A stretch of 64,000 nt of DNA from Patescibacteria group bacterium (GTDB lineage Bacteria > Patescibacteriota > Patescibacteriia > 2-01-FULL-39-33): positions 23,944 to 87,943 of the forward strand of contig JBAZMW010000001.1 in the NCBI GenBank assembly GCA_041649575.1, in the 5' to 3' direction. Every line of letters starts with the position of its first letter. Within the stretch, counting starts at the first letter, position 1. Below, in pieces: positions 10,327 through 38,366 of the stretch. The notes under the pieces were generated by a model. The model searched no databases. It was not told the origin of the DNA and saw nothing but the letters and a program-made list of their open reading frames with translations. The position numbers and the translations under genes were made by a program.

Positions 10327-10345
10327 AATTAAATTTTTTAAAAAT

Positions 10346-10384: not shown

Positions 10385-10416
10385 AAGTTTATAGTACAGG
10401 TTGGGTAAAGAGCTGG

Positions 10417-19666: not shown

Positions 19667-20602
19667 ATGGAAGGCGACCGACAGGAGGAGTCAATTTTGA
19701 GCGATAACTCGGATTTAGAGTTAAAATCCCCATACAAAAGGGGTAATTTTTCTGTTGTTGGCCGCTCAAAACCAGAAAAAATTATTTCGGTAGCGGTGGT
19801 GGTGATGATTTTGGTGGCACTTTTTTTTGCCTATTACCAGCTGGCTAGCAGTTTTAAGAAGCCTTTTGTTAATTTTAGTCAGTTGGCGGCTAGTAGTAAT
19901 ACTTCCTGTTCTGACGGCAGTTGCTCTGGAGAGAATTCGGCCTCGGAAGAAGAACTAAAAAATACTGACACAGACGGAGACGGCCTTTCTGATTATGATG
20001 AGCTAAACGTTTATAAGACCAGCCCCTACCTAGAGGATACCGATAGCGACGGCACCAGCGATAAACAGGAAGTGCAGTTGGGGTACGACCCAAACTGTCC
20101 CGGTAAGAACCCTTGTTTTGGCTTCAATTTTGATGCTGTCAGCCAAGCCGCTTCGACCACGGCGCCGTCTTTTCAGATCATGCCTAGCACCCCAGTTCAG
20201 CAAATAACTCCTGATTTTTTGCGTCAGCAGCTGAAAGCCAGCGGCGCTACCGAAGAACAATTAGCCCAGTTTAGCGATGCCGAGCTTTTGGCCATGTATG
20301 AGGAATATGTGGCCGAAACGGGGAGCCAGAATACCCAAGCGGGACAGGCCGGCAGTCAGACAAATTCTGGCGGCACTGGCACCAATAATTCTTTGCAGCC
20401 TAGCGGCAATATCGATTTAAGCCAGCTTAATGTGCAGTCGGTAGACGATCTTAAAAAATTAACAGGGGCGCAAATCAGACAACTAATGATTCAGCAGGGC
20501 GCGCCGGCCGAGACCTTGTCCCAAGTCAGCGACGACAAGCTTAAGGAAATGTTCTTGGCGCAGCTGGAGAGTAAATTAAGCGAGACAAATACTAATAAAT
20601 AA
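19667..20602 (+). CDS. secreted/membrane-anchored protein with thrombospondin-type-3-like Ca-binding repeats
   Basis: TM anchor, Cys cluster, 'DTDGDGLSDYDELNVYKTSPYLEDTDSDGTSD', then a Q/S/T-rich tail. It lies directly upstream of the giant protein gene. Confidence 0.5.
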   Translation: MEGDRQEESILSDNSDLELKSPYKRGNFSVVGRSKPEKIISVAVVVMILVALFFAYYQLASSFKKPFVNFSQLAASSNTSCSDGSCSGENSASEEELKNTDTDGDGLSDYDELNVYKTSPYLEDTDSDGTSDKQEVQLGYDPNCPGKNPCFGFNFDAVSQAASTTAPSFQIMPSTPVQQITPDFLRQQLKASGATEEQLAQFSDAELLAMYEEYVAETGSQNTQAGQAGSQTNSGGTGTNNSLQPSGNIDLSQLNVQSVDDLKKLTGAQIRQLMIQQGAPAETLSQVSDDKLKEMFLAQLESKLSETNTNK

Positions 20603-20623: not shown

Positions 20624-23600
20624 ATGAATCCAGGAGAAGGAACAAAAAAGATAACGAAAAATCTATTTAACAAGGTGATAGTGGTTGGTTTTTTGTTAAG
20701 TTTTTTTATTCCAGCTTTGGTTATAGCGCAGGAGGTTGTTCCAGGAATTAGCGGCGTTAATGTGGCGGATGTGCACGATGAAAATGCTTTTAGGGTGGCT
20801 ACGGAAGGAGGGGGAGATGCTGTGATTACTTGCAATAATTTTGTCGCTGGCGGTTTGGCAACATCCGGAGATATAGCCGCTTTAATTAAATGTATAGAAA
20901 GCGGGACTAAGGCGCAAAACAAAACGGTTGACAAGAATACCCTCAAGCAACTCAAGGCCTTGGAACAAAAGCAGCAGCGTGAAGAATTGTTCAGTAAAAT
21001 GAAGGATGAGCTGAAAAAGAGCATGGCCGGCGCTTTTAAGACCATGCTACGGCAATTTTCCAAACAATTGGCTTATGACACGGCCGTTTGGGTAGCTTCT
21101 GGCGGCAAGGGGCAACAGCCGCTGTTTATGACCGAGGGTATCGGCGCTTATTTGCGAAATCAGCTAGATAATGCCCTGGGTGTGTTTTTGGACGAACTGG
21201 GCCGCTATTATGGCGTGGATGTCTGTACGCCAAATTTCCAGATTAGAGCGCTCCTGCCCGGTTATTTGGGCAGACCACAGGTGAGTGTTCGCTGTTCTTT
21301 TACTAAAATGATCAGTAATTGGCAGAGTGCGGCCCAAAATGCCAGCTTTGCCGTGGAGTACAGAAGATTTTTGAGGCCAGGAGAAAATGATATTTCTTCG
21401 CTACTAATGATTAAAACCGGTTTGAGCAACAAACTAGACCAAGAATTAAGAGATAGCGTTTTAAATGTTTTATCGAAAGATGGCTGGAAGGATGTTAAAG
21501 ATTTTGCCGGCTGGGTTTTGACTCCGGGCACCATGGTGCGCAAGGCCACCGAAAACGCCATTGATCCCCAAAATACTTCGATAGCGGACTACACCTATAC
21601 CGATACACTCTGGGATTTTATCGAAACTTTTTTGAACACGCTGACGGGAAAACTCTTAGAAAATTTAATGACTGGCTTTTTCAGCTCCGGCGGCAATACC
21701 CAAAATTTCACTACCGGTAATTCAAGCTCCAGTTTATTTAATCCTTTGGCGCAACCGTTTAGCGAGGGCCAAGAAGGAGCACAGGAAAGATTTCTGAGTC
21801 TGGTGGAGGGAAGTTTGCAGGTGGGCGGTGTTTACGATATTTTGAACAAACTGACCCAATGCCTGGATTCCAGTAAAAGCAATTTAGGGCCGACAGACTG
21901 TGTTATTGATCAGGCCCTGGCTCAAGCCATAAGAGAAAAAAAATTAGTCAAAGATTTATCCGCGGATATTTTAAATCGTCAGTTCGCTCCCTCTATCTCG
22001 GCCAACATCAATCCGCAGACAGTTTTTACCTTAAGAAATATTGTTATCTTGAGAAAATATCGAATCGTGCCTGTTGGCTGGGAAGTCGCCGCCAAACTGG
22101 TCAATGAAAAAGCCAAACAAATTTATACTTTGCGTCAGTTGATGGAGTGTTATAACGGCTGTGATCGTTTTGGCAAAGAAGAGGATTTTTGCGGCAATCC
22201 GGCCGTGGAAGACACCAGTAGCTGGTGCCGAGGACTGGTTGATCCCAACTGGGTCTTAAAGGCGCCGGAACTATTCTGCCGGCGGGAAGGATACGGGATC
22301 GAAAGCGGCGCCATTGATTCCCAGAACAGTGTCAGTCGGGATAAATATTGCGCCGACGAACAGCAATGCATCAAAGAAGATGAAAAAGGCAATTGTTTGG
22401 CCTATGGTTATTGCACCAAAGAACGCCGGACTTGGGATTTTAATTCTTCCACCTGCGACCCGAAATTCAACACTTGCTTTAATTTTAAATCGCGAACGGG
22501 AGCTGCCAACGCTTATTTGGCCAACACCCTTGATTATAGGGATTGCGACGCTCAAGTGGCTGGTTGTCGTTGGCTGGCTACGGCTTTGAATCCGGTTAGT
22601 AATTATTGGTTGAATCTAACCTATAAAACGAACGAGCTGGGCAAACCCAAGGAAGTCTTAAAGACCTGCAATAATCCTCTGGGTTGCGAGGTGACGGGAG
22701 CCAGCGCAGCTGCCGCTGTGACTTATGGCCACAACATTAGCCCCGATGCCAAAACGATCCTTTCCCAGCCCTGCAATAAAAGCGCCGGCTGTTCTTACGA
22801 AACCAGTAAGTGCACCATTCCTAACGGTGGCGTCACTTGTTCGCCAATAAAAGCAGCTTGTGACGGCCAAAATAATATTTTGGCCGGTTATAATGGCAAT
22901 TTTGCCAAATGCGCCTCTTGGAATGCGGAAAAGTGGGAAGAGGGCTGGGGCGGCTCGGAGAATAATCACCACGCTTGCGTTACTGGTGTTGGCGTGACCG
23001 GCAGTGGCATCAAAGACGACAAGGCCCTGGCCAGCTATACCCTGGGCCAGCAGGTAAGCTCGGCCTTAAGAGACATCTCGGTTGAGCCAAATAAAAAATA
23101 CATTCTGACTTTTGAAGCCAAGAAAAGCGCTCTGGATGCTTATGGTGGAGTTACTAGGGGTTCGGTTGCTGTCAAAGTGGAGTTTACCGATACCAGCGGC
23201 AAGAAGACCGATCAAGGAGTTGTCTTGGCGGCCGATGATTTGAGCGATACTGGTTATCGGACTTTTACTATTGGCAATATCAATAACGGTAATAATGACA
23301 AGTTTACCATCAAAGTGACGACCAACGCCGGTTCTTATGGCAGTTTCTATTTTGATGAATTTATTTTGCGGGAGGTGACGGAGAACTGTTTTGAGACCAA
23401 CCTGGTTTTGACTAATGGCGTTCAAACGGAAGACGACAGCAACAAGGAAATTTATTTTGACCGCGACATTCAGTCTTGCGACGCCAAAGACGAGGGCTGT
23501 AGCCAATTTATTCGCACCAAGGCCGGGTTGGGCAGCAACTTAATACCCAACAGCGGTTTTGAGATTGATGCTGGTGGCGATAATAAACCGGATGGCTGGG

Positions 23601-26600
23601 TAGAGAGAGGGCTGACCAATATTAGTCTGGACACCAACGATAAATATAAAGCCAAGATAGTTTATAGCGCCGAAGGATATGATAAATATCCACTGATACC
23701 GGTAGAGGCCGGCGAATATTATGCCATTTCCTTTGATGCCGCTCAAGCTATTAGTGGCAACAATGACGAAGCTGATTTGGAAATGATTTTTTTGAACAAG
23801 GAAGCGGACGCGATTATTGGGGCAACCGGTATAAAAATCGACAAGACAAATTGCGCCCAGACCGGAGACAACACCATTACTTTGAGAAATTTGCCTGCAA
23901 ATATGAATATGCAGAGGCAGTCTTGCTACTTTTTGGTGCCGGCCGGGGCCAGAGTTATGGGTTATAAGCTGTTTTCGGCCACCGCCAGTGGAGTTAATTT
24001 TATTGACAACATAAAATTGGAAAAAATAAATTATTTCAGCTTGAACGCCTCGGTTTATACACCCTATACGCCTTCGGAACGACCAGTAAGCCAGTTGGCT
24101 TTTGTCAAAAAGGCTCCTGCTTATTACGGCTGTTATAAAACCGGCAGTCTTTGGCCGCAGAGCGAGACTGAATTGGAAAGAGTTTTGCTTGGCCGCAGTG
24201 CGGCCTGCGCTAATTTTGCCAGCGTTTGTATCAGAGATGAAGTTGGTTGCGAACGTTATAGTCCGCTAAATAAGGATCCGGCAGTGCCGGGCAAAATCAA
24301 CGCGCTTAATATCTGCCCGGCGGAGTGTGTCGGCTACCAGCTGTATCGCAAAGAGAAAACTTATTTCGAAAGCGTAAGCTACGAAAAATTCATTGCCGAC
24401 AAAAAACCGCAGTATTGCTCGGCCGCTTACGCCGGTTGTGATGAGTTTACCAATTTAGACGAAGTGGCCAAGGGCGGCGAGAGCAGGGAATACTATTCGC
24501 AACTGCGCGTTTGTCAGCAACCGGCCGCCGACGCCAGCGATGCCACTTATTACACCTGGGAGGGCAGCGACACCACCGGCTATCAGCTAAAAACTTATCA
24601 GTTGAAAAAAAGTCAGACGGACAGCTTTGATACTAATGCTCCCTGCACTGTTTTGGATTATCCGGCCAGTTTAAATGGCAAGAACCAGTGTAATGACCTG
24701 AAAGATGACGGAACCAACAGCGTTGGTTCGGTTTCATTGCCGGCCGGCTACAGTAGTCTAAAGGGTTATTTAACGGTTTTACAGGGTTATACCGATACCA
24801 GTAGCAGCGATCCGAATTTACCCACTATTGTTAACTCGGGAATTTTGGACGAGTTGCACGAGTTTGGCATCTGCGCCAAACAAGAGCTCAACGGCATCGT
24901 TTACAATCGAGGCACGATGGATGATGCCAGTGACGATATTTACATTTATGCCAATGCCGATTGCCGCGAGTTTTATGATGGCAGCGGCCAAGTCCATTAT
25001 CGGCTGCTTTCCAAGGCAATCTTTTCTTCCAGCGAGTGCCATCCTTATCGTCGCAGCCAGGTTCAGACCGATACGGCCGAAGCCCAAGCCGATTGCCGAA
25101 ATTCCCAAGGCTATTGGAATGCTAACGGAGAGTGTATTTATATGGCGATACCCGGCCAGGGAAAGACTTGCCCTGCCAGCGCCAAGGGTTGCCGTCAATA
25201 TGTCGGCAATCAAGGCAACAACGTCCGTTTGAAGTTTTTTGATAATTTTGAGAGTAATCTGGGCGCCTGGCAAGGCGGCGGTGTTCTGGCCATGGAAGCC
25301 ACTAATCCGGGAGGCAAATCATTAAAGAAGGCGGGCGGTGGCGAGATTAGCCGGCCGGTTGCCACAGTCAAAAATAAGGCTTATATCTTAAGTTTTTGGG
25401 CCAAGGCTTCGGCCGACGCCGTTGTGCTGGATGCAATTAAATTTAAAGGAGCGGAAAATAACTCCGACAATTATTTTGCCGAAAGCGACAGCGACGCCGA
25501 CAATATCCCGCAAGCAGTTTTAAATACCACTTGGCAGAAATATGACTTAGGTCCGGTTTTTGTCACTTGGGACGAAAGAGCCGACGAAGCGCTAGAAATC
25601 AAAGCGCCGGCCGGAGTCGATGTCTTTTTTGACAACATAATTCTAAAAGAAGTTCAGCAAAACGTTTACCTGATCGCCAATACTTGGTTTACGCCTTTTG
25701 CTTGCGATAACATACTGGAAACACCCTTTGGGTCAGCCGGTGATTCCAATAATCCGACTCGTGACAGCCAAGGAGAGATGCTCGGCTGTCAGGCTTACAA
25801 TGATCGATCCGATCAACCCTGGTATTTGAAATCATTTTCCAGATTATGCCGCGAAGACGCTGTGGGTTGCGAGGCCTTAATTAATACCTTTAACTCCGAT
25901 TCTCCTTGGGGCAAGGAATTTAATAACGAAGACTTGGAAACGCATGATGACGTGACGGTCCAGAGCGATCAGGCGGTCTATTTGGTCAATGACAATCAAT
26001 ATGCTTGTCAGGCCGAGGATAAGGGTTGCACGGCTTTCGGCTTGCCCAGCGTCACCAAGTATGACGAAACAATAGGTTACAGCACTGTGTATTTGGAAAA
26101 CGTTCCTGACCGTTATAGCTTTGATCTGTGCCGTTACCAAAATTTATGGTGCGAGGAATTCTCCAGTGCCGATGCCCGCGAACTGTCTTATTTTAAGGAT
26201 CCCAGAGACAAGCTGTGCGAGTACACCGCGATTTCCGGCAAGAATTACAGCAACTGGTATGCCAAAGGGACTAATAATCCCTGTCTGACCACCGCCACGC
26301 AAACGATTGGTCTGGGTTCGGCCGATGAGAAGCGGCAGCCAATCGGCTGGTATGACAATAAAACAGAGACGGAGGTGGCGGATTATAAGGGTTGGGCCGG
26401 CCTGTGTCCGGCCGAGCAGAGCTCTTGCACCGAATATATCGATCCGCTGACCGAGGTTTATGAGGGTCTCTTTAATAAGGAGGAAAACAGTTTCAAAAAC
26501 TGTGCCGGCGAAACTCCAGGAGCCGAGCAAAACAATTGCGGTTATTATGTGTTAGAACTGGAGGACGAAAATCTTTATACCATCTCGATCAAGAGAACCA

Positions 26601-29600
26601 GCTCCGGCAATGTCGCCACCCAGCTAGTTTGCGATAATGAAATTTGGTCGCCGGATAAGAGTTTGGATGTGTCTGGCTCTAGTAAATTAATTTTAAACAG
26701 AGACAACGTCGGCGGCGATAAGCAGGTTAGCGGTAGATTTTATCTGGAAAGTACCGGCGCCGGCCAGGCCAGAGTCAATTGTCGCATTTACGATCCTGGT
26801 TTTGACGGCGAAGAGATCGAAGTGGTTAAGGCCGGGGTTTATTATCAATTGGCCAAAGCGGTCAATCGCGCCGCCTGCAACGGTTTGGTGGATATAGATA
26901 GCGGTTGCGTTTTGTTCAATGAGAGAGGAGAGATGAATTACTCCAAGCAGGGCGTGGAGAGAGTCCGCGATTATCTTGACTTTGACGCCGATGAAACTTT
27001 CAATTTGCAAATCAAAGCTGCCAGTAAAAATCCACAGCCGCCATTTTCAGCGATTTTGCCAGGCCAAAAAAATTCTAATTCGATCATTAAAGTGTCGCCA
27101 GACAGGGAATGCAGCGGCTGGCTGTTTTGCACCACTTACGAAAAAGCCAATCCCGAAGATACGGATTTGGCCTTTGGCAGTCAGGATAAGTGTTTGGAAA
27201 TAGGCCTCTGCAGTCGCTTTGATAGCAAGGGAAATTGTTTGAAATATTCGCTGGGCAAAAAAGAAGCCCTGTCTACCAGCACCCCCGATTTTCAAAACTT
27301 AACGGGATACTCCATCAGCGGTTATTACCCGACAGATCTGATGGAACAAATCGGCAATGCGGCCAACTTGCCCAATGGTAATTTTGAATCAACTTACTCG
27401 GGAACCAAAGAACCTCTTGGCTGGTATATCGGCGGCAGTCATTATGATTCGGACAACATCAAACAGCCAGGACAAGTCAGCGGCTGGGGCGATTATCGTT
27501 TTAGCATCGAACGGGATTCTGCCAATCGTAGGGAAGGCTCTGGTTATTTAAAATTAAACGGAGCCTATGAGGCCGAATCGGAACTGGTAGATGTTTTCCC
27601 CAATGTTGATTACACTATTTCGGCCTGGGTAAACACGCTTAACCTGCAGCCCACTTCGACGCAAGCGGAAATTCTGGTCAGGGAGCTAAACGCCAGTGGC
27701 AATACTATAAAAAATTCCAACTGCTCGGCCGTGGCCGGCTGTTATGAAGTCAAAATCAATGGCATCTCCTGGTCTTTGTATGGCGGACTGAAATTAAAAG
27801 CCGGCCAGCCCTGGCTTAGAGTCAACCAGCGGATAAAAACTATGCCGGAAACTTCAAGATTGCAAATTAAACTGTTAAATTTTCTTAGTAGCCAGGATTA
27901 TGTAAATTGTCGCGACCAGAACGCAGCCACCTATTGCAAAACGGGGGGCTACACTTTCTTTGACGATTTACAGATAAACGCCGCCCTGAAAGTTAATGAC
28001 AAAGAGAACATAAAAAGAGACTGTCGCGCTTATCCCGAGCAGGATTCATTGGCCTGTCGGTATTTCAAAGATAATCAGTTTTTTTATGGCTGGTCCGGCT
28101 ACTGCCTGACTTATGATCCGCTAAACTCTCGTTCCTGTCTGCAGTGGTGGCCGGTCGACAATATAAAAGGGGAAGTGGAGGACGAGGTTTCCGGTTATGA
28201 CAACAGAGTTCCTTTGTATTATTGTCTGTTAACCGAATTTGAAAGAGAATTGAAAGAAGTAAGTACCGATGTGATACAGGTTCAGGAAGCGGTCGGCGGC
28301 GCTATGCCGGTTGCCTCTCAGGCCCAAGGAGTGGCGGGAACAATTTTGGATTTTTTAGAATTCATTCTTAATATTGTGGGCGATGTCTTTCTGGGCGGAA
28401 CTAATAGCGGAACAATCATAACCGACCTGATAGCCGGCGGCTTGCAGACTTTTGCCGGCATTGATGTCGGGTCGAGCGGCTCTTCGTCTTCAAAATCGAA
28501 TATGCCTCAATGCGAAAGACTAAGCTTTGAGGATTTGAAATTCGATCCGACCACAAAAAGCTTGAATTCCTGGGTTGCCAGTATCACCGGGAATAATTCC
28601 AGAAACGTCGATGCCAAGTATCTGAAGCCGATAAGTTTGTATAATGTAGTCTATATCACCCTGGATACCGGCTATGGCGGCGGCGGCGGCGTGGAATGCG
28701 AAGATCAGGGCGGGCATAATTTACAAAAAGTAAAATACACGGAAAATTTTATTCTTAGAGGTCTGTATAAATTGGTTGTCGGCGGTACTAGCAGTATAAC
28801 TACCGAAGATTATGGTTATGTTTCTCCTGGCGATGGTACGGCCGGCCTGGATTATAGCGACAAGACTTATTGCGCGGGTTTTGTGACCTTTTTTGACAAA
28901 GACGAGAACGGTCATCGCAAAGGAGAAATAAAAAACATGATAGCCTGCGCTCAGGATACAGGGGAGTACACCCATCAGGACACCTTTAACTTTAAGTTTA
29001 AGATAGGCTACATGACAGACAAGCAGGGCCCGGCTTGCCAAATATTGGCTCAAGTGGTGACTCCGATGGGCAATAACAAGGCTTGGAGCAGAAGGGTGGC
29101 CAAGGGCAGTATTTTCACTATGCCTGGTCTTGGCACTTCGTATAATTCCGATTATCCTCCTTATGGCGCGGTGGTGCCGCCGGAGCCGGCGCATTATCCC
29201 GAGGTTTGGGATACCGACTTAACTCAAAAAGATAAGCAAAAATTATATCATTCCGCGCCGGAACTGGAAAGCCAAAAGCCCTATCAGGCCAGGGCGGGAG
29301 AAGTGTTTAGTTGCGTCAATTATGTCAATGATTTGCCAGGTTATGATGGAACAATGGGAGCGTTAAGAAGTATTTTTGGAGTCGCTTCCAGCTGGGCTTA
29401 TAAGGTGCCTTGTTTTGAGGGCTGCCTGAAAGGCATCAGAACCGACAATGCCTGGCAGGGACTAACTTCCATAACCCAGTCGGTGCTGTGTGTTTGGAGA
29501 CATTGCACCAACGCCTGCAATTTCATCGGCCGTTGCAGTCAGTCGGGCAGTGTTTGTGTCAACTACAACGGCTTTGGCGATGATATTTTGGGTATTGATT

Positions 29601-32221
29601 CGCTCGACGAACAGTCCATGCCTTGCCCGATTTCCGGAGAAAAATGCGTTAGCATCTCTTTGTGGAAAATGTTGAACCAAAACGGAGTACCGACCTGGAT
29701 CGACCAGGCAGCCATTAGAAACAGTTCCAGTTTCATAAAACGACTTTTCGCCAAAAGTTATGGAGTCTGGACCTGGGCCGGCGATGGGGTCGGCTACAAG
29801 AAGACCGACCAATATAATTGGGATGTTCCGGTCAGGCAGTGCGAATTTCACGGCGTGCCAAATGTTCGTCCTGATCCTCAAAATAGCAGTATCAACGAGA
29901 TAATTACCGGCTGGTTTGATCTGAATTTTGAAAAAAACCCAGCCACCGTGGCGGATTGTGATTGGGGCAGCGCCTGCTTGGAGCCGGCCGGCTGTGATTG
30001 TCATGGACTGTGCACGGTGCCCAACGGACAACGAACCTGTGAGTATCCCAAAAATCCGGATTATTGCGGGGTGGCTCCGGTTATCAATAATATCAGAGTG
30101 AACAAGAAGGTGGAGGTGGATGTAAACGGAGTGAATTTGTCAAATACGCCGGTTAAAGTCAGCAACAACAGTAACGTGGAGCTGGAGTTCAACGCGACCT
30201 TGGATCCCGAACAGTTGCCGCTCTCGGCTTACCAGGTTGATTGGGGAGATTACAAGCTCTCTTATTCCGGCATCGAGCTAAGAGACCGCTCCAATATCAA
30301 AAATAAATTCAAACTCTATCATTATTATAGTTACGAGAAGTTGTCCAAACAAAACACCGGTCTTGATGAGATTTATTGCGACGGAGACGCTCTGCCGCAG
30401 GATCCAGCGGTAAGTCCGCCGGTTCTGACCGTTGCTTCCGGAGAATGCTGGCTAAAAATAAAAATTCAGGTGCGCGATAATTGGGGCTGGTGCAACGGCA
30501 GTGATAGCGCCAAAGGTTTTCATGTCAGCAGCGGCAAATGCGGTTCAGACGAGGCCTGGAGGAATTTTGGCCGCTGGGTGGTGGTAATAAAGAATTTCGA
30601 AGACCTCGATGTGGAAGAAGATAAAGAGCTAAATAATGACAGTGATCTGGATTTAGCTTTCACGCCCTATAATGGTATTTGTGAGCCGGGAGAGGATATT
30701 AATACCGAGCCGGCCTGCCCCCTGACTTCGGGCGCCAGTTTTTCTTTGAGGCACAATACTATGAAAAGAACTATCAGCACCAATCCGCAACTTGATGAAT
30801 ATTGGTATTTTTCCACCGGTCAGGGTGAGGATATAACTAAAATCAGGAATTTAAGAATCAGGGCGATCGGAGTTTTAAATTCCAAGCAATGGGAAATAGA
30901 TGATCAGGTTGTGAAGAACGGCGCGAGATTTAATTTGGTTAAAGTCCCCTACGAGGTGCAGAAGAATTGCGAGGTCAAACGGCTCAGCGCCGTAGAGGAG
31001 CCGACACTAGGGGACGGCGATTGTGTTTACATCGAAAGCGAGAGACTAGCCGCCGGCGCCTCCGAAAGCGGCCAGATTTGGGACACCGCTCTTTATAGCC
31101 CGCAGTTGTTCACTTACCCGTCAATATTAGAATATGACTACCAGTTTAAAAGAGAAGGCCAGATAGAAAATCCGCCAACTGTTTTTAAGCTTCATGGAGA
31201 GAGGACTTTCTATCGTGGCACGGTGATTACTTTAGAGGAGAGAGACGACGACGGCACCATTAAGAGCGGCGCCAAATATATAGATGTTGACACCGAAGCC
31301 TGTGATTCCGTATTCTGTGATTTAAAGCAAGGTTCGGCTAATGGTTTTCATGTTTGTGACAATCAGGGAGATTGTTCTGTCAACGCTTGCGATGGTCGGT
31401 GGGACGATAAGGATTTGATTTACAAAACCGTCTGCGAGCTCTTTGGCACGGATAGCCACTGCCGGCCAGAGTGTTCTTGCGAACAGGGTTTTCAGGCCAA
31501 AACATCCGCCGATGGCACTTGCGTAGATTGTTCCAGTGGCCAAAGTTGCGGCTGTCCCAGTTTCCAGTGCTGGAATTCTTCAAGCAAAACGTGCGAACCA
31601 TGTGGCCTGAAGCTGATGGGCAGATTCGCTCTGGAAGAAGCCGTTAACACGGCCGTTGTCGGGGCGACCGCGCCCAATACCGACGGCCGGCGAAATTTGA
31701 CAGTCAAAGACAAAGACTCCAATTTTATCCAAGAAGGCGATCCAGACGCTCTACTTTGCTTCCAGCTGGTGAAGATAAAAAACAGCTCCGGAGCAGAGCA
31801 AAGCAGTTTTACCAGAGATTTGCAAAATGGCGATATTGTCACTCTGTTTACTCCTTGGGGCTGCGTGCAAGAGGCCGGTAATGATTACGTGGTGGGCGCT
31901 GGGAGCGGTTGTCGCGAATTCAAAGTTGAAGGCAGCCCGGTTTTTTCCAAGGGCTCGACTATGACTCTAAAAGATGGCAGCAGTTATTGGGATGCCGATA
32001 TAGCCGGAAGTGGCAAGATAAGTAAAGGCAGCTTAAATACCTTCAAAGTCGGTGATTGCAGCGACGGCAGCTTTGCCTTGGCCAGTTCTGAGTGGCGTTT
32101 GGCCAGCGGCCGCGTGGCGGGAGCGAGCGAGAGCGGAGCCGGATCGAGGCTGGGCCGGCTGGAAGGAGCTTTGGCTGATTTGTGGAACAATTTTTCAAAA
32201 TTAGTGGCCAGAGTATTTTAG
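20624..32221 (+). CDS. giant (3865 aa) cysteine-rich cell-surface protein with multiple CBM4/9-like beta-sandwich modules (putative adhesin)
   Basis: It is an uninterrupted 11.6 kb ORF with an N-terminal signal/TM anchor (KVIVVGFLLSFFIPALVIAQE). There are hundreds of Cys. Recurrent modules read 'N(L/G)xPNxxFE…GW…' (e.g. NLIPNSGFEIDAGGDNKPDGWVERG; FFDNFESNLGAWQGGG; LPNGNFESTYSGTKEPLGWYIGG), typical of carbohydrate-binding CBM_4_9-like domains. The C-terminus is an EGF-like Cys-rich region. Confidence 0.75.
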   Translation: MNPGEGTKKITKNLFNKVIVVGFLLSFFIPALVIAQEVVPGISGVNVADVHDENAFRVATEGGGDAVITCNNFVAGGLATSGDIAALIKCIESGTKAQNKTVDKNTLKQLKALEQKQQREELFSKMKDELKKSMAGAFKTMLRQFSKQLAYDTAVWVASGGKGQQPLFMTEGIGAYLRNQLDNALGVFLDELGRYYGVDVCTPNFQIRALLPGYLGRPQVSVRCSFTKMISNWQSAAQNASFAVEYRRFLRPGENDISSLLMIKTGLSNKLDQELRDSVLNVLSKDGWKDVKDFAGWVLTPGTMVRKATENAIDPQNTSIADYTYTDTLWDFIETFLNTLTGKLLENLMTGFFSSGGNTQNFTTGNSSSSLFNPLAQPFSEGQEGAQERFLSLVEGSLQVGGVYDILNKLTQCLDSSKSNLGPTDCVIDQALAQAIREKKLVKDLSADILNRQFAPSISANINPQTVFTLRNIVILRKYRIVPVGWEVAAKLVNEKAKQIYTLRQLMECYNGCDRFGKEEDFCGNPAVEDTSSWCRGLVDPNWVLKAPELFCRREGYGIESGAIDSQNSVSRDKYCADEQQCIKEDEKGNCLAYGYCTKERRTWDFNSSTCDPKFNTCFNFKSRTGAANAYLANTLDYRDCDAQVAGCRWLATALNPVSNYWLNLTYKTNELGKPKEVLKTCNNPLGCEVTGASAAAAVTYGHNISPDAKTILSQPCNKSAGCSYETSKCTIPNGGVTCSPIKAACDGQNNILAGYNGNFAKCASWNAEKWEEGWGGSENNHHACVTGVGVTGSGIKDDKALASYTLGQQVSSALRDISVEPNKKYILTFEAKKSALDAYGGVTRGSVAVKVEFTDTSGKKTDQGVVLAADDLSDTGYRTFTIGNINNGNNDKFTIKVTTNAGSYGSFYFDEFILREVTENCFETNLVLTNGVQTEDDSNKEIYFDRDIQSCDAKDEGCSQFIRTKAGLGSNLIPNSGFEIDAGGDNKPDGWVERGLTNISLDTNDKYKAKIVYSAEGYDKYPLIPVEAGEYYAISFDAAQAISGNNDEADLEMIFLNKEADAIIGATGIKIDKTNCAQTGDNTITLRNLPANMNMQRQSCYFLVPAGARVMGYKLFSATASGVNFIDNIKLEKINYFSLNASVYTPYTPSERPVSQLAFVKKAPAYYGCYKTGSLWPQSETELERVLLGRSAACANFASVCIRDEVGCERYSPLNKDPAVPGKINALNICPAECVGYQLYRKEKTYFESVSYEKFIADKKPQYCSAAYAGCDEFTNLDEVAKGGESREYYSQLRVCQQPAADASDATYYTWEGSDTTGYQLKTYQLKKSQTDSFDTNAPCTVLDYPASLNGKNQCNDLKDDGTNSVGSVSLPAGYSSLKGYLTVLQGYTDTSSSDPNLPTIVNSGILDELHEFGICAKQELNGIVYNRGTMDDASDDIYIYANADCREFYDGSGQVHYRLLSKAIFSSSECHPYRRSQVQTDTAEAQADCRNSQGYWNANGECIYMAIPGQGKTCPASAKGCRQYVGNQGNNVRLKFFDNFESNLGAWQGGGVLAMEATNPGGKSLKKAGGGEISRPVATVKNKAYILSFWAKASADAVVLDAIKFKGAENNSDNYFAESDSDADNIPQAVLNTTWQKYDLGPVFVTWDERADEALEIKAPAGVDVFFDNIILKEVQQNVYLIANTWFTPFACDNILETPFGSAGDSNNPTRDSQGEMLGCQAYNDRSDQPWYLKSFSRLCREDAVGCEALINTFNSDSPWGKEFNNEDLETHDDVTVQSDQAVYLVNDNQYACQAEDKGCTAFGLPSVTKYDETIGYSTVYLENVPDRYSFDLCRYQNLWCEEFSSADARELSYFKDPRDKLCEYTAISGKNYSNWYAKGTNNPCLTTATQTIGLGSADEKRQPIGWYDNKTETEVADYKGWAGLCPAEQSSCTEYIDPLTEVYEGLFNKEENSFKNCAGETPGAEQNNCGYYVLELEDENLYTISIKRTSSGNVATQLVCDNEIWSPDKSLDVSGSSKLILNRDNVGGDKQVSGRFYLESTGAGQARVNCRIYDPGFDGEEIEVVKAGVYYQLAKAVNRAACNGLVDIDSGCVLFNERGEMNYSKQGVERVRDYLDFDADETFNLQIKAASKNPQPPFSAILPGQKNSNSIIKVSPDRECSGWLFCTTYEKANPEDTDLAFGSQDKCLEIGLCSRFDSKGNCLKYSLGKKEALSTSTPDFQNLTGYSISGYYPTDLMEQIGNAANLPNGNFESTYSGTKEPLGWYIGGSHYDSDNIKQPGQVSGWGDYRFSIERDSANRREGSGYLKLNGAYEAESELVDVFPNVDYTISAWVNTLNLQPTSTQAEILVRELNASGNTIKNSNCSAVAGCYEVKINGISWSLYGGLKLKAGQPWLRVNQRIKTMPETSRLQIKLLNFLSSQDYVNCRDQNAATYCKTGGYTFFDDLQINAALKVNDKENIKRDCRAYPEQDSLACRYFKDNQFFYGWSGYCLTYDPLNSRSCLQWWPVDNIKGEVEDEVSGYDNRVPLYYCLLTEFERELKEVSTDVIQVQEAVGGAMPVASQAQGVAGTILDFLEFILNIVGDVFLGGTNSGTIITDLIAGGLQTFAGIDVGSSGSSSSKSNMPQCERLSFEDLKFDPTTKSLNSWVASITGNNSRNVDAKYLKPISLYNVVYITLDTGYGGGGGVECEDQGGHNLQKVKYTENFILRGLYKLVVGGTSSITTEDYGYVSPGDGTAGLDYSDKTYCAGFVTFFDKDENGHRKGEIKNMIACAQDTGEYTHQDTFNFKFKIGYMTDKQGPACQILAQVVTPMGNNKAWSRRVAKGSIFTMPGLGTSYNSDYPPYGAVVPPEPAHYPEVWDTDLTQKDKQKLYHSAPELESQKPYQARAGEVFSCVNYVNDLPGYDGTMGALRSIFGVASSWAYKVPCFEGCLKGIRTDNAWQGLTSITQSVLCVWRHCTNACNFIGRCSQSGSVCVNYNGFGDDILGIDSLDEQSMPCPISGEKCVSISLWKMLNQNGVPTWIDQAAIRNSSSFIKRLFAKSYGVWTWAGDGVGYKKTDQYNWDVPVRQCEFHGVPNVRPDPQNSSINEIITGWFDLNFEKNPATVADCDWGSACLEPAGCDCHGLCTVPNGQRTCEYPKNPDYCGVAPVINNIRVNKKVEVDVNGVNLSNTPVKVSNNSNVELEFNATLDPEQLPLSAYQVDWGDYKLSYSGIELRDRSNIKNKFKLYHYYSYEKLSKQNTGLDEIYCDGDALPQDPAVSPPVLTVASGECWLKIKIQVRDNWGWCNGSDSAKGFHVSSGKCGSDEAWRNFGRWVVVIKNFEDLDVEEDKELNNDSDLDLAFTPYNGICEPGEDINTEPACPLTSGASFSLRHNTMKRTISTNPQLDEYWYFSTGQGEDITKIRNLRIRAIGVLNSKQWEIDDQVVKNGARFNLVKVPYEVQKNCEVKRLSAVEEPTLGDGDCVYIESERLAAGASESGQIWDTALYSPQLFTYPSILEYDYQFKREGQIENPPTVFKLHGERTFYRGTVITLEERDDDGTIKSGAKYIDVDTEACDSVFCDLKQGSANGFHVCDNQGDCSVNACDGRWDDKDLIYKTVCELFGTDSHCRPECSCEQGFQAKTSADGTCVDCSSGQSCGCPSFQCWNSSSKTCEPCGLKLMGRFALEEAVNTAVVGATAPNTDGRRNLTVKDKDSNFIQEGDPDALLCFQLVKIKNSSGAEQSSFTRDLQNGDIVTLFTPWGCVQEAGNDYVVGAGSGCREFKVEGSPVFSKGSTMTLKDGSSYWDADIAGSGKISKGSLNTFKVGDCSDGSFALASSEWRLASGRVAGASESGAGSRLGRLEGALADLWNNFSKLVARVF

Positions 32222-32257: not shown

Positions 32258-35200
32258 ATGACAGTCAGAAGAAAAAAATTGATTTTAATTATAACAGTCG
32301 TCTTGTTTTTGGCTGGAATTTTTTTGTTGAGCAGTAATATTTCTTTTGCCCAGGAAACCAACTCCGACTCCAATATTAATGGCAATATCAGTTCGGATTC
32401 CGATGTCGAAGCCGACACCAACATTAATGCGGATTACAACCCCAAGCCAGCCGAGAATGCCGGCGCACCAGCCAATGACGGCAAGATTGCCGGGTTCATT
32501 AATTGGATTTTGTATTACGTGGCTTCGTTTTTTGGCTGGCTGGTGGGGCTGATAGTCAATGTTTTGGTTAATAAGGTGGTGGTTTTTAATGATTTTTTGA
32601 ATGTCCGGCTGGTCAAGGAGGGCTGGCGCATTGTGCGCGACATCTGTAATAATTTTTTTATCGTCATCTTGCTGGTGATCGCCGTGGGCACTATTTTGCG
32701 GGTACCCAACTATCAATACAAACAATTGTTGCCAAAACTTTTGATAATGGCGGTGCTGATTAATTTTTCCAAGATGATTACCGGCGTCCTCATAGATTTT
32801 TTTCAGATTATTATGGTGTTTTTCGGCGGAGCCCTGGTAAAAGAAAATGCCGCCGGAGTGATTTTGGCCAGTGTGGGGTTGTATAAGCTATATTTATTGG
32901 GACAAAACCCAGGGGGACAAATTCTTGGGAACGAGAATTTGCAGGATTGGGATATTACTATCGCTCTGTTTTTTGCCATTGTAATCTCCATTGTCGCCTG
33001 CGTGGCGATAGGAGTGACTATGATCATTCTGGTCTATCGTATTGTAATGTTGTGGATTCTGGTGATTTTGTCGCCGGCCGCTTATTTTCTTTCTTCCTTT
33101 CCCAAAGGCCAGCAGTATGCCGGCATGTGGTGGAGCCAATTCGCCAGCAACCTGGTAGTCGGGCCGGTGCTGCTGTTTTTTCTGTATTTGTCCTTTTTCA
33201 GCGGTTACCGCGATGTCGGCGGCGTAGAAAACACTCGGGGAGGGACGGTTACTATCCCTAGTTCTGCTACTACCCCAGAAGAGCTTAAAAAAAGCGCTAA
33301 AGAAGCTAGGACTGATACTGGCCAAAAAGGTTATATAACCGGTTCTACAAATTCACTCATGGCCACGGATCAAGGATTTTTTGATTATTTAATTATTATT
33401 GCCCTGATGATTGCCGGTCTGGCCGTAGCGCAAAAAGCCGGCGCCGCCGGCGGACAATGGGCGGGCAAGGGCGTGGCCAGTTTGCAAAAATGGGGGAAGA
33501 GAGCAGCCAAGCTGCCTTTAGGTGCAGCCAAGTATACAGCCAAGGAGACTGGCCGAAAAGTCGCTGGAATTCTAAGTTATGAGACAAAAAGTGGCAAACG
33601 ACTCCCTTTTATTGGTCAATGGGCTGGTGATATAAAAACTAAGATGGAAGATGATATTGTAAAACGGCGTACTGCTATAATGAAAAAAATAGGCATGGGG
33701 GACAAGACAAAAGAATGGATAGCCGGCAAGAAGGAGGATTTCAAAAAGGCAAGATACCAAGTTTCTGGTAGGCTTGTTCAAGCGCCAGTTGGGGCCGCTG
33801 TGCATGGCGCCGGTGGAGCTGCTTTGGGAGCTACTATTGGAGGAGTTGCCGGAGGAGTTATTGGTATAATGACAGCCAATCCTCTATTAGCCTTGGGTGG
33901 GGCCAAGGCTGGTGCTTGGATAGGCGGTGCTATGGGAGGATTTGGCGGTATATTAGGAGGCTTAGGAAAAAAACCTTTACAATTTACGGTTAAGGCTGCT
34001 GAATTAGACACGAAGACGGTAAAAAATGCAAAGAGAAAGGCCGATGCCTTGAATGATACCACCGTGCCAGTTGGTGGCACGGATGAAAGTGGTCTAATTG
34101 AGGCCAGAAGTTCATGGAAAAATACCGGGGCGTATATTGGAGCTGGCGGTATTTTATCTAAGGAAAATAAAAAGATGCTTGATAATATAAATGACGACGG
34201 TCTAGCGCATTTATCGCAAGCCATAGATGCTGAAATAGACCCAACTAAGAAAAGTGATTTAAAGGAAGCTTTTACCAAAATGTTGGCTGCTTATAAAAAA
34301 GGCGGCGGATCTAATCTTAGTACCATACAGTCATTTCTCGGTGGCGGAAGGAATGTTTTGGGTATAAGCGAAACAGCTCATATGGATCCTTTAATAGCAG
34401 CTAATAAGGTAGACGTTGCTTCCCGTCGTACCGGTACCGAGAAGTTCAGAGAACAACGCGGTGACTTAAAGGTAGCTCGGTTTAGTCATCTTAAAGATAA
34501 CACAGAGGCTGGTGTTGATTTCAGGGATTTGTTTGAAGGCAATTCAGAGCTTCTAAGTCAAATCAAGGCGCAACAACCGGATTTTGACATCAGTCAAAGC
34601 GGTATTCATATCGAAGGCAAGGAAATGACGCAAAAAGTCTCACAAGCCATGGCTGTCTTGATAGACAAAGAATTGGCCAGTCTTTCTCATAACAGCGCTA
34701 TTGCTTCGACCGGTCAGAAGGAGCAAATAGGCAGAAGAATGGGAACGCTAAGAACGGCCAGAGAGCAACTAACGTCTGGCAGATTGCAGCAGTTGCAATT
34801 ATGGAATAGCGGCCTGGAGAATGAGACCGGCGAAGCGGCAACTACCATTTTCCATGAAAGGATTCATAAAGCAGGTGTTAAGAGCGAAGTTAAGGCCGAG
34901 GAAGGGGCGCGGTTTATTAGGGAAAGGCATTTAGCGGGTTTGCACGAAGAGATCGCCAGGGAAATGGTAGCCATGGAAGGCGAAAGGGGTGGAGATGATT
35001 ACACTATGGACGAGGTGATGGCCAGAGTCAAAGAAAAGCATGGCACCAAGGATAAAGTGAAAAGATTAATTGCCAGAGAACAAGAAGCGGGAGTCGCTCC
35101 GGGCAAGACTGGCGCTAAAGAGCCCAAGCCAACCAAAACTATTACCGAAGCCCCCGAGCTGGAAAGAGCAATACAAGAGCTGACCGAGGCTTTAACCAAA

Positions 35201-35449
35201 ACTAGCAGAAGCGAGGCAGGCGGTGTCGGGCCGGGCGGCGCTTTGCAGCCTGATTTGCAAAGAGAAGCGGCTGCCAACGCCAATTTTTTCAGGTTGCTGC
35301 AAAGCTTGAGAGAAATCGAAAAAGGCGTAGCTGGCTTGGGGGACAAAGAAGCAAAAGATGCTGTCGGCGTGGTGGTCGGGCTGGGGTCAGATCCAGTGCC
35401 TTTGGACGCCCAAGTGACGGCCGAGACTGTTAAAAATTCTTTAAGTTAA
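32258..35449 (+). CDS. VirB6/TrbL-like polytopic membrane protein with long Gly-zipper and coiled-coil C-terminal region
   Basis: Signal peptide, then 7 or more TM helices in the first ~370 aa. The 'GWRIVRDICNNFFIVILLV' region resembles the TrbL/VirB6 core. This is followed by Gly-zipper segments (GAAVHGAGGAALGATIGGVAGGVIGI…) and a charged C-terminal domain. Confidence 0.5.
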   Translation: MTVRRKKLILIITVVLFLAGIFLLSSNISFAQETNSDSNINGNISSDSDVEADTNINADYNPKPAENAGAPANDGKIAGFINWILYYVASFFGWLVGLIVNVLVNKVVVFNDFLNVRLVKEGWRIVRDICNNFFIVILLVIAVGTILRVPNYQYKQLLPKLLIMAVLINFSKMITGVLIDFFQIIMVFFGGALVKENAAGVILASVGLYKLYLLGQNPGGQILGNENLQDWDITIALFFAIVISIVACVAIGVTMIILVYRIVMLWILVILSPAAYFLSSFPKGQQYAGMWWSQFASNLVVGPVLLFFLYLSFFSGYRDVGGVENTRGGTVTIPSSATTPEELKKSAKEARTDTGQKGYITGSTNSLMATDQGFFDYLIIIALMIAGLAVAQKAGAAGGQWAGKGVASLQKWGKRAAKLPLGAAKYTAKETGRKVAGILSYETKSGKRLPFIGQWAGDIKTKMEDDIVKRRTAIMKKIGMGDKTKEWIAGKKEDFKKARYQVSGRLVQAPVGAAVHGAGGAALGATIGGVAGGVIGIMTANPLLALGGAKAGAWIGGAMGGFGGILGGLGKKPLQFTVKAAELDTKTVKNAKRKADALNDTTVPVGGTDESGLIEARSSWKNTGAYIGAGGILSKENKKMLDNINDDGLAHLSQAIDAEIDPTKKSDLKEAFTKMLAAYKKGGGSNLSTIQSFLGGGRNVLGISETAHMDPLIAANKVDVASRRTGTEKFREQRGDLKVARFSHLKDNTEAGVDFRDLFEGNSELLSQIKAQQPDFDISQSGIHIEGKEMTQKVSQAMAVLIDKELASLSHNSAIASTGQKEQIGRRMGTLRTAREQLTSGRLQQLQLWNSGLENETGEAATTIFHERIHKAGVKSEVKAEEGARFIRERHLAGLHEEIAREMVAMEGERGGDDYTMDEVMARVKEKHGTKDKVKRLIAREQEAGVAPGKTGAKEPKPTKTITEAPELERAIQELTEALTKTSRSEAGGVGPGGALQPDLQREAAANANFFRLLQSLREIEKGVAGLGDKEAKDAVGVVVGLGSDPVPLDAQVTAETVKNSLS

Positions 35450-35452
35450 ATT

Positions 35453-36388
35453 ATGGCTAATAATTACATTGCCGAATGTTTGACAAAATTTAGAGCCCTG
35501 CCTCGAGAAATCCAGGAGGCGGTGGGCGGTTTTGAGGCCTTGAAAACCATTCAGGGCCTGGAAGAGACCCATAGAATCAAGCTGGGGCTGATGGTCATTT
35601 TAGTGGCGATTGGCGAATTAAAAATGGAGGAAATAGAGGATTATCTGATGGAAAAGTATAATTTTGGAAAATGGGAAGCGCAGGAGATCAATGAGATTTT
35701 ACAGCAAAGCATTTTTGAACCGGCTCTTGAAGTTGCTTTGGCAACAATGCCTTTAGCCGGCCAGTCTGGACGAGATTTAAGTTTGCCCGAGCAGAAGAAA
35801 ATTTTGACTGATTTATTCAGAGAAAGACTAAAAGAGGTCTTAACCGGCGATGGTGAGCTGGTTCAAGAAGTAAACGATATGATTTTTGATATTTTGGGTC
35901 GGGAAATGGGCGACGAGAATAAAATGTTTGAAAAAGATTTGGAAAAAATTCTCTATCTCAACCAAGAAAAATTGACCAGTCAGAGCATTAATATCGACGG
36001 CCGGCCTCTCGAGCCCACGGTGGCTAATTGGCTTAGGGATTTTATTAATAGAAACGGCACTGCATTTTTTTCCAACCTGGTTTTGTCGCAATATCTGGCC
36101 AACTCGGAAAACGGCAACCGTTTGAATCAAGGAGAAAAGATGCTTCTGGGCAAATTGTTGGTTTTGTATCGCAATTTAAAATTTTTTCCAGACAACCTGA
36201 CTAATTTGCCCCGAAACCAATGGGAGATCATTCCCATTAGCCGCCATAAGTCCGAGCCAATAGCTTCGGCTGGCGCTGCCGCTGGCGGCAGCAGAGCTGT
36301 GCCCCAAGAAGAGCCCTCTCCGGCTTGGCAGGGGCTGTCGGCGATAGAAAAGAAAGCTTTAATGGAAGAGGAAAGTTCCAGAAAATAG
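35453..36388 (+). CDS. hypothetical protein, paralog A (shares N-terminal ~80-aa domain with next gene)
   Basis: N-terminus 'F.ALP.EIQEAV.GFEALKTIQGLEETHRIKLGLMVILVAIGELK' aligns with the N-terminus of ORF 36417. There are no TM segments. Confidence 0.45.
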   Translation: MANNYIAECLTKFRALPREIQEAVGGFEALKTIQGLEETHRIKLGLMVILVAIGELKMEEIEDYLMEKYNFGKWEAQEINEILQQSIFEPALEVALATMPLAGQSGRDLSLPEQKKILTDLFRERLKEVLTGDGELVQEVNDMIFDILGREMGDENKMFEKDLEKILYLNQEKLTSQSINIDGRPLEPTVANWLRDFINRNGTAFFSNLVLSQYLANSENGNRLNQGEKMLLGKLLVLYRNLKFFPDNLTNLPRNQWEIIPISRHKSEPIASAGAAAGGSRAVPQEEPSPAWQGLSAIEKKALMEEESSRK

Positions 36389-37919: not shown

Positions 37920-38366
37920 ATGGAACAAATAGTAGTACCACAATTTTTAGACGTCGAAGACAAGATTATCGGTCCGATAACCGTGCGTCAGTTTATCGAA
38001 ATGATGATTGGCGGTTTGCTTTGCTTCATCTTTTATAAACTGTTTGATTTTTCACTTTTTGCTGTGGCTTCGCTCTTGGTGATTCTGGTCACTCTGGTCA
38101 TCGCTTTTGTCAAAATAAACGGCCAACCCTTTCATTATTTTTTGTTGAATTTTTTTGGCACCGTCAAAAATCCCAAATTGAAAGTTTGGCGCAAAGACGT
38201 GACGCTGGCCGATATCAGGGCGCTAGAGGCCAAACAGCCGGTGACCAAGCCGCCAACGGTGGCGGGAACAAGGCAGATACTCACCACTTCCAAAATATCG
38301 GAGCTGTCTTTGATTGTTGATACCGGCGGTGTCTATCGCGGCGAGGAAAAGCTAGCTATTAAATAA
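37920..38366 (+). CDS. PrgI-family (VirB3-like) small membrane protein
   Basis: 'VPQFLDVEDKIIGPITVRQFIEMMIGGLLCFIFY' matches the PrgI-family N-terminal motif (VP.d..vkdkiffGLT.RQf). It is followed by two TM helices. It sits immediately upstream of the VirB4-family ATPase, as in Gram-positive T4SS operons. Confidence 0.55.
   Translation: MEQIVVPQFLDVEDKIIGPITVRQFIEMMIGGLLCFIFYKLFDFSLFAVASLLVILVTLVIAFVKINGQPFHYFLLNFFGTVKNPKLKVWRKDVTLADIRALEAKQPVTKPPTVAGTRQILTTSKISELSLIVDTGGVYRGEEKLAIK

Follow-up and report, generated by a model that had tools for sequence, protein, structure and literature searches.

What is the role of a single gene that takes up 11.6 kb of a Patescibacteria genome, and is this role reflected in the genes that surround it? 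We studied this question for the giant open reading frame (ORF) at positions 20624-32221 (+ strand, ATG start, 3,865 amino acids (aa)) in a stretch of 64,000 nucleotides (nt) from contig JBAZMW010000001.1 of assembly GCA_041649575.1. We refer to this whole stretch as the window, and all coordinates are given relative to its first letter unless another locus is named. The protein (NCBI MFA5029165.1) is annotated as 'MAG: hypothetical protein WC518_00230 [Patescibacteria group bacterium]'. An earlier note, made from the sequence alone, had described it as a cysteine-rich surface protein and probably a glycan-binding adhesin. We found that the gene is a conserved member, and the first large gene, of a type IV secretion system (T4SS) operon of ultrasmall Patescibacteria of the ABY1 type. 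The function that we favour, with a confidence that is about evenly balanced, is that of a Sec-exported, disulfide-stabilised, glycan-binding component through which the T4SS contacts the host and of which the secretion genes are the operon partners.

The giant gene is real. Its reading frame contains no internal stop (translation table 11), and given the composition of 47.6% GC the chance of 3,865 consecutive stop-free codons is ∼1e-87. The same protein is encoded identically in three assemblies, namely the NCBI metagenome-assembled genome (MAG; 245 kb contig), ENA ERZ27247363 (116 kb contig) and Logan SRR8542065 (25 kb contig), and a frameshift introduced by assembly is thus unlikely. The claim of an uninterrupted ORF of 3,865 aa was therefore confirmed. 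The same holds for the suspicion that the antisense ORFs (22150-31842, minus strand) are artefacts. Nine antisense ORFs reach 100 aa or more, with a maximum of 189 aa, and codon-shuffled versions of the gene gave 5.8 ± 1.9 such ORFs with a mean longest of 183 aa. Count and length are at chance level and we thus regard these ORFs as by-products of the long sense frame. The many cysteines were found as well: the protein has 134 Cys, which is 3.47% of its residues. The family is unannotated, and we found no description of it in the literature that we searched.

The evidence on the role of the gene begins with its neighbourhood, which we compared across 83 related loci. Gene order and strand are fixed across these loci despite an identity of the giant protein of only ∼27-45%. 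The conserved string consists of KsgA, a membrane protein with TSP3 repeats, the giant, a VirB6/TrbL-like protein, two soluble proteins (311 and 489 aa in the window), PrgI, TrsD, VirB4, a single-pass membrane protein and ComF. The TSP3 gene lies directly upstream of the giant in 55 of 58 loci and the polytopic VirB6/TrbL-like gene directly downstream in 35 of 36. PrgI, TrsD and VirB4 were reached in 29 of the 36 loci having at least 9.5 kb of downstream sequence; in the remaining loci longer intervening genes place VirB4 beyond the retained flank. The housekeeping genes KsgA, MFS and FemAB likewise belong to the conserved neighbourhood. Independent look-ups of the neighbourhoods agree with the synteny of the 83 loci.

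For the window the individual genes are as follows. The TSP3-repeat membrane protein (19667-20602, + strand; Pfam TSP3_bac E 2.7e-8) has a single transmembrane segment at aa 34-63 and ends 21 nt before the giant. TSP3 repeats of the bacterial type are labelled as calcium-binding. The polytopic protein (32258-35449, + strand; 1,063 aa, ∼7-8 hydrophobic segments) starts 36 nt after the giant, and no terminator-like site was found between the two genes. The protein itself has no Pfam match. As 11 of 28 orthologs match Pfam TrbL/VirB6 (best E 6e-6), we term it an extended VirB6. The soluble proteins of 311 and 489 aa (35453-36388 and 36417-37886, both + strand) are placed between the VirB6-like gene and PrgI and have an N-terminal domain of ∼77 aa in common (36% identity, BLASTP E 2e-11); they belong to no Pfam family and are kept in synteny. 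They are followed on the same strand by the PrgI/VirB3-like protein (37920-38366; Pfam PrgI E 1.3e-8), the TrsD/VirB4-N-like protein (38380-39063; 227 aa, NCBIfam TrsD E 2e-8) and the VirB4 ATPase (39067-40971; 634 aa, Pfam P-loop_TraG E 3.6e-29 and AAA_10, NCBIfam VirB4_plasma E 3.5e-11). A 189-aa protein with one N-terminal transmembrane helix (40999-41568, + strand) comes next and is found directly after VirB4 in 23 loci. It has no Pfam match and by its position and topology is a candidate VirB8-like component; VirB8 homologs have been reported almost only in ABY1 (PMC12102498). The ComF-like phosphoribosyltransferase (41599-42273, + strand) closes the conserved string, and RecG (43515) and a RadA-like protein (46353) lie after the T4SS cluster.

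On the minus strand we found two VirB2-like T4SS pilins (47707-49688; Pfam T4SS_pilin E 7e-9 and 1.4e-9) with 10 and 6 Cys, respectively, and beside them a membrane-anchored DsbA-like oxidoreductase (49685-50407; Thioredoxin_4 E 4e-28, DSBA E 6e-18). The latter had already been recognised in the earlier note; it does have an N-terminal transmembrane helix and recurs beside homologous loci. In several other loci pilins and/or DsbA are encoded less than 10 kb from the giant gene, and in the related loci L088 and L085 pilin genes interleave with it. One of the pilins in the window (48507-49688, minus strand; 393 aa) shows a faint C-terminal Phage_lysozyme match at aa 245-348 (E 0.0076, below cutoff). 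Judged by this match, the protein could be a pilin-muramidase fusion that replaces the VirB1 usually missing near Patescibacteria virB4.

Loci of ABY1 T4SS have been described as including comF, recG and radA (Quinonero-Coronel et al., PMC12102498), and the cluster in the window fits this pattern as it contains ComF-like, RecG and RadA-like proteins as well as pilins. VirB4, TrsD, PrgI/VirB3 and pilins were found together with comF, recG and radA, which places the cluster among the T4SS of Patescibacteria (related to the mating pair formation type MPF-FATA). No relaxase or type IV coupling protein families were found among the window ORFs scanned.

The giant protein belongs to a large family. 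When aa 1-1200 were used as query in an exhaustive HMMER search, 1,239 cluster representatives passed E ≤ 1e-3 and 912 of them also passed E ≤ 1e-30; nearly all of the best 150 matches have lengths of 2,400-3,850 aa. We also scanned one genome for each GTDB species by pattern and tblastn, and relatives were encoded in 366 stretches. Searches seeded with alignments added fragments and shorter relatives and returned no distant families. The named carriers are Candidatus Buchanan-, Falkow-, Komeili- and Magasanikbacteria, in addition to MAGs labelled 'Parcubacteria/Patescibacteria group'. These groups belong to the GTDB class ABY1. Many related loci carry the title 'uncultured Gammaproteobacteria', which we presume to be mislabels. 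We also considered a phage or mobile origin of the giant gene. No relative was found among the IMG/VR viral contigs and the locus lies in the chromosome, with housekeeping genes around it, so this origin is without support.

How is such a protein built, and which of its parts are kept? The BLAST coverage profile against 132 full-length homologs separates conserved blocks (aa 100-650, 950-1350, 1450-2550, 2800-2900 and 3150-3300) from variable inserts (aa 650-950, 1350-1450, 2550-2800 and 2900-3150). Residue conservation was computed from a 45-sequence alignment. Conservation peaks in the helical domain at the N-terminus and in the Cys-rich connectors, and the modules that resemble carbohydrate-binding modules (CBMs) are less conserved: the mean identity is 0.34-0.51 for the connectors and the N-domain and 0.19-0.32 for the beta-sandwich modules. 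By residue type, Cys has the highest mean identity with 0.77, compared to 0.62 for Trp and 0.42 for Gly. A total of 57 Cys are at least 90% conserved, and within aa 100-2550 this level is reached by 65% of the Cys.

The N-domain (aa 100-540; 20921-22243, + strand) is mostly alpha-helical, conserved family-wide and covered by 100% of the 132 homologs. It includes invariant D, E and R residues. We modelled parts of the protein with AlphaFold from multiple sequence alignments (MSAs) of 35-37 rows, and the models reached values of ∼61-64 in the predicted local distance difference test (pLDDT). In the model of the N-terminal part (37-row MSA, pLDDT 60.8) the helical N-domain leads into a beta region rich in Cys (aa 541-660; 22244-22603, + strand), which has 9 Cys and the highest mean identity of the protein (0.51). 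The N-domain has no Foldseek match at E ≤ 1e-3 in PDB or BFVD, its profile has no match in PDB and no Pfam match was obtained in 60 members. We dismissed a match to Phage_TAC_12, which was below the cutoff (E 4e-4 to 9e-3) and occurred in one of 15 members.

The connectors are characterised by a recurring hairpin motif, C-x6-C-x-x-[FY], usually with a Gly before the second Cys. Copies occur at aa 641, 952, 1202, 1265, 1516, 1742, 1795, 1836 and 1928. The first of these ends the Cys-rich beta region, and the hairpins at 952, 1516 and 1928 directly precede the beta-sandwich modules B, C and D, respectively. Connector 1 (aa 1131-1530; 24014-25213, + strand) has 18 Cys, the hairpins at 1202, 1265 and 1516 and an invariant C-D-E-F-T-N-L-D. 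Connector 2 (aa 1686-1945; 25679-26458, + strand) contains the hairpins at 1742, 1795, 1836 and 1928. Connector 4 (aa 2463-2540; 28010-28243, + strand) is also conserved and Cys-rich, with a mean identity of 0.49. The N-domain and the C-x6-C hairpin connector are thus two uncharacterised conserved elements.

The end of connector 2 is also the point at which the gene is divided in some lineages. There the giant gene consists of two or three adjacent colinear ORFs, and the recurrent break corresponds to aa ∼1945, which falls between connector 2 and module D (L088 10001-19213, L089 10001-18255 and L084 8311-19415). The two parts have 1,534 and 1,516 aa in L088 and 1,573 and 1,086 aa in L089. Arrays of pilin genes lie immediately around the split giant genes; in the case of L088 there are at least seven pilin genes upstream and one more directly downstream.

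The earlier note had assigned the N-x-x-F-E signature of CBM_4_9-like or laminin-G-like beta-sandwiches to at least four segments. We observed the strict motif at only two positions, aa 976 and 2251. The beta-sandwiches themselves were recovered: we distinguish five modules, of which B, C and E are supported by profiles, D is supported by the structure model and A is faint. Module A (aa 757-887; 22892-23284, + strand) lies in a variable region that is present in only ∼30% of the homologs by BLAST coverage, and a faint Pfam CBM_4_9 match (E 0.13) is its sole support. Module B (aa 969-1124; 23528-23995, + strand), with N-S-G-F-E at aa 976, resembles CBM16 and CBM70, with profile matches to PDB entries 2zey (CBM16, E 3e-7) and 4d0q (CBM70, E 3e-5). 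Module C (aa 1534-1684; 25223-25675, + strand) passes the gathering threshold of Pfam CBM_4_9 (PF02018) with 34.7 bits compared to a cutoff of 25.9 (E 2.8e-8). Its profile matches CBM22, CBM4 and CBM16 in PDB (E 4e-8) and its model has a pLDDT of 80-90. For module D (aa 1970-2075; 26531-26848, + strand) we found no match at the sequence level, and the module is read from structure prediction only (AlphaFold strands, pLDDT ∼70-84). Module E (aa 2241-2462; 27344-28009, + strand), with N-G-N-F-E at aa 2251, is CBM70-like: its profile matches 4d0q, the hyaluronan-binding CBM70 module of a hyaluronate lyase, with E 3.6e-4, and its model again has a pLDDT of 80-90.

The AlphaFold model of aa 1450-2550, which comprises modules C, D and E (pLDDT 64), gave 128 Foldseek matches in PDB at E ≤ 1e-3. 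The single-domain matches are to CBM4-2, CBM16, CBM22, CBM61 and CBM70 with TM-scores normalised to the target (TMt) of 0.6-0.74; those to CBM4-2, CBM16, CBM22 and CBM61 have E-values of 1e-7 to 1e-5 in a search with the whole model, in which the matching module is not resolved. The multi-module matches are to Cry protoxins and reelin repeats (E ∼1e-10, ∼1,000 aligned columns). As their global TM-score is ∼0.1, we rejected a kinship with Cry toxins or reelin, and these matches reflect the module type only. Of 15 diverse family members, 12 have a CBM_4_9 match (best E 5e-17). Beyond this family the 15 members gave only single matches, to Cu-binding_MopE, Endotoxin_C, Dickkopf_N and, faintly, Phage_TAC_12, and no catalytic domain was detected in them. 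Self-BLAST of the giant protein at E ≤ 1 gave no internal sequence repeats; the modules are too divergent.

Towards the C-terminus the protein becomes more variable. The insert at aa 2541-2795 (28244-29008, + strand) is covered by at most 13% of the homologs. Within it we noticed a Gly-rich, hydrophobic and amphipathic stretch at aa ∼2555-2640 (28286-28543; …GVAGTILDFLEFILNIVGDVFLGG…LIAGGLQTFAGIDVG…), which is below the threshold for a transmembrane segment and could interact with membranes. The family C-terminal domain (aa 3141-3300; 30044-30523, + strand) carries the motifs V-D-W-G-D-G and D-N-W-G-W and marks the end of most homologs. Its profile has no match in PDB. The WGDG motif might be taken as PKD-like. 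The query continues with an extension of 565 aa (aa 3301-3865; 30524-32218, + strand), which is covered by none of the 83 related loci and none of the 132 homologs. The extension has 25 Cys and an amphipathic, helix-like tail, and 11 Cys fall within aa 3601-3700. The C-terminus had been described as EGF-like. This was not upheld: the tile aa 3201-3865 has no Pfam match at E ≤ 1, EGF included, and aa 3301-3865 have no PDB sequence match at E ≤ 5. The C-terminus may form a small disulfide knot of an unrecognised type.

The opposite end of the protein suggests how it might leave the cell. By hydropathy the sole hydrophobic segment of the giant is N-terminal (aa 13-45), and the first 35 residues (20624-20728, + strand) resemble a signal peptide. 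In a heuristic reading they consist of a lysine-rich n-region (KK..K..K), an 18-residue hydrophobic core (VIVVGFLLSFFIPALVIA) and VIA|QE. An N-terminal hydrophobic core is present in 116 of 125 full-length homologs (uncharged core of 15 residues at the median), and a K/R n-region and a small-x-small motif accompany it in 102 of the 116. No further hydrophobic or transmembrane segment was found in 99 of the 125. The segment had previously been interpreted as a membrane anchor. Its presence was confirmed, and by its sequence features it looks like a cleavable Sec signal peptide more than like an anchor. There is no hydrophobic or transmembrane segment at the C-terminus of the giant either. Anchoring by LPxTG and sortase, for which the earlier note had suggested a check, was rejected: LP.[TSA]G is absent from the query and LPxTG was observed in the last 60 aa of none of the 125 homologs.

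We can now return to the question of what the protein does. In the reading that we favour, the precursor would be exported via Sec by its N-terminal signal sequence. Once outside the cell, the ∼57 conserved Cys would be oxidised, for which the DsbA-like protein from the gene next to the pilins is a plausible agent, and the short C-x6-C hairpins and the connectors rich in Cys would thereby be locked as a rigid scaffold. The helical N-domain would hold the giant at the secretion apparatus via the extended VirB6-like protein, the TSP3 membrane protein or both, and the more variable CBM4/16/22/70-like modules would point away from the cell and bind host-envelope glycans, as would the variable inserts and the C-terminal extension. 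A T4SS with a VirB2-like pilus would in this way gain host contact and host specificity. Disulfide formation fits with the neighbouring DsbA-like protein and the Cys-rich pilins, and adhesion to glycans is reasonable as several beta-sandwich modules of the CBM/laminin-G type occur in what is probably an exported, Cys-rich giant. The glycan-binding adhesin of the earlier note is thus retained as far as the modules are concerned; the free-standing protein that it had in mind is not, since the gene is a conserved member of a T4SS operon. It has been reported that the T4SS of Saccharibacteria is essential for epibiotic growth (PMC10633639; review PMC12857230), and in the phylum-wide survey of T4SS no adhesin like PrgB was found and genes without annotation were left grey (PMC12102498).

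Several points weigh against a glycan-binding host-contact component. The N-domain is without a recognisable fold, so that a catalytic or channel role is possible, and there is neither an LPxTG motif nor a C-terminal transmembrane segment to account for retention at the surface. Folds of the CBM type occur in non-lectin contexts too, for instance in domains of Cry toxins and in the repeats of reelin. With pLDDT values of 61 and 64, the AlphaFold models deserve only moderate confidence, and co-transcription of the giant with the T4SS genes is deduced from gene spacing alone. Furthermore, as relatives were seen only in ABY1-type lineages, the essentiality found by transposon sequencing in Saccharibacteria is not directly transferable.

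The same observations can be arranged differently. If the giant were a structural part of the T4SS and not an adhesin, it would be braced by disulfides and cross the wall or S-layer as a stalk or conduit that reaches the host and replaces the missing VirB7/9/10 outer core, in a role analogous to that of CagY. This would explain why the gene is universally and rigidly placed directly before VirB6, why the connectors and the N-domain are better conserved than the modules and why the gene splits at one recurrent boundary into genes that stay colinear and adjacent; moreover, no other wall-spanning component was recognised in the operon. We nevertheless consider it unlikely. The protein has no homology to VirB9, VirB10 or CagY and neither the whole giant nor its tiles are listed by Pfam with TrbI/VirB10 or any other TrbI/VirB family at E ≤ 1, no oligomeric or channel-like fold is predicted (the monomer models being of low confidence), and modules of the CBM type indicate ligand binding. 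In a related and bolder picture the giant would be the missing half of the Patescibacteria T4SS outside the cell, a stalk of C-x6-C connectors, ∼400 kDa in mass and braced by disulfides, whose novel-fold domain docks on the extended VirB6 and which, with the pilins, bridges to the host for the exchange of macromolecules. We regard this as improbable to a similar degree; if true, the CBM-like modules and hypervariable inserts would set the host range.

The link with the T4SS may also be questioned altogether. The giant has its own putative Sec signal, its modular CBM-like architecture is typical of free-standing bacterial adhesins, and the presence of KsgA, MFS and FemAB in the neighbourhood is a reminder that synteny in small genomes is not always functional. 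On this basis the protein could be a stand-alone surface adhesin or an S-layer-like coat, adjacent to the T4SS genes through genome compaction or shared regulation. Such a separation is hard to reconcile with a gene that sits between two conserved membrane-protein genes of the cluster with gaps of 21-36 nt, that keeps order and strand across lineages at the low identities given above and with which pilin genes interleave in L088 and L085, and we judge it quite unlikely. Still more doubtful is a secreted effector, toxin or wall-degrading enzyme with a catalytic or membrane-active N-domain and CBM-like modules for targeting, whether as a surrogate of the VirB1 hydrolase or as a relative of Cry or binary toxins. 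CBMs are classically appended to glycan-active enzymes, the best Foldseek matches include Cry protoxins and binary-toxin B components, one member matches Pfam Endotoxin_C (E 1.6e-6), the N-domain has its invariant D, E and R residues and VirB1 homologs are scarce near Patescibacteria virB4 (PMC12102498). Yet 15 full-length members and the N-domains of 60 members gave no hydrolase, peptidase or pore-forming family, the TM-scores of the Cry, reelin and toxin matches are ∼0.1 and indicate common beta-sandwich modules only, and the N-domain model has no structural neighbour. The faint lysozyme-like signal of the locus is on one pilin and not on the giant. We therefore consider this role very unlikely.

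A comparison with known systems shows what the giant has in common with them and where it differs. PrgB of pCF10 is a Sec-exported, large, modular surface protein from a T4SS cluster of the MPF-FATA type in a monoderm and is presumed to contact the target cell, which is what we propose for the giant. The giant, however, has no sequence or domain homology to PrgB and is without LPxTG or sortase anchoring; it is three to four times larger and Cys-rich, and its T4SS is chromosomal. No PrgB homologs were found in the Patescibacteria survey (PMC12102498). Modules B, C and E match the families CBM4, CBM9, CBM16, CBM22 and CBM70 by profile, but in contrast to those families they are not joined to any recognisable glycoside hydrolase; they are set in Cys-rich connectors, with a conserved C-x6-C hairpin preceding modules. 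With the reelin repeats and the C-terminal regions of Cry protoxins the giant shares the alternation of beta-jelly-roll modules with small Cys-containing elements. Their arrangement differs, their sequences are not homologous and their biology has no relation to that of the giant.

In CagY, the large protein of the cag T4SS of Helicobacter pylori, the cysteines are located in the repeat regions. Like the giant, CagY is very large, T4SS-encoded and Cys-containing (PMC10706595); it differs in being the VirB10 homolog of a diderm system. Secreted proteins of several thousand residues have also been described in Omnitrophota (10.1101/2023.11.21.568195), on the conjugative Hodor megaplasmids (10.64898/2026.02.21.707213) and as FhaB-like proteins of Patescibacterium danicum (PMC11809585). 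These also adjoin secretion or conjugation genes and have a proposed role in cell-cell interaction. However, they have other domains (FhaB, DUF2341, S-layer/MBG) and other partners (sortases and systems like the type II secretion system or type IV pili), and none of them has been reported with an architecture of Cys hairpins and CBMs or with a place immediately before VirB6.

A large part of bacterial diversity consists of Patescibacteria, which apparently live attached to other cells. The giant gene is likely to be central to this lifestyle as it accounts for more than 1% of a genome of ∼1 Mb. With its fixed place in a T4SS operon and its occurrence in hundreds of species, it is a concrete candidate for the means by which ABY1-type candidate phyla radiation (CPR) bacteria recognise and hold their hosts.

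We made several further observations in the window outside this cluster and its pilins. Between ComF and RecG there are three tRNA genes, Ser-gct, Ser-tga and Arg-gcg (42447-42540, 42777-42863 and 43426-43501, respectively). The listed 207-aa ORF with a GTG start (42783-43406, + strand) overlaps with tRNA-Ser(tga), and its start is therefore probably wrong. At 57301-63517 (+ strand) three consecutive ORFs of 444, 1,006 and 603 aa are without a Pfam match; they come after a ClpB/ClpC-like ATPase, an HtpX-like M48 peptidase and a second LemA gene on the opposite strand. A GC-rich patch at 10001-12035 has a GC content of 0.53 compared to 0.41-0.47 around it. It holds two minus-strand ORFs without a Pfam match (10417-11472, with an N-terminus like that of a signal peptide, and 11469-12035), and the patch may be a foreign insert. 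Lastly, the leucyl-tRNA synthetase (7024-10326, + strand; 1,100 aa) has a Ser_hydrolase/alpha-beta-hydrolase domain inserted at aa 550-718 (Pfam E 6.4e-17). Beside two homologous loci the synthetases have a NUDIX insertion instead (L002 2979-5840 and L089 4600-6513), and thus this insertion site appears to host different hydrolase domains across CPR lineages.

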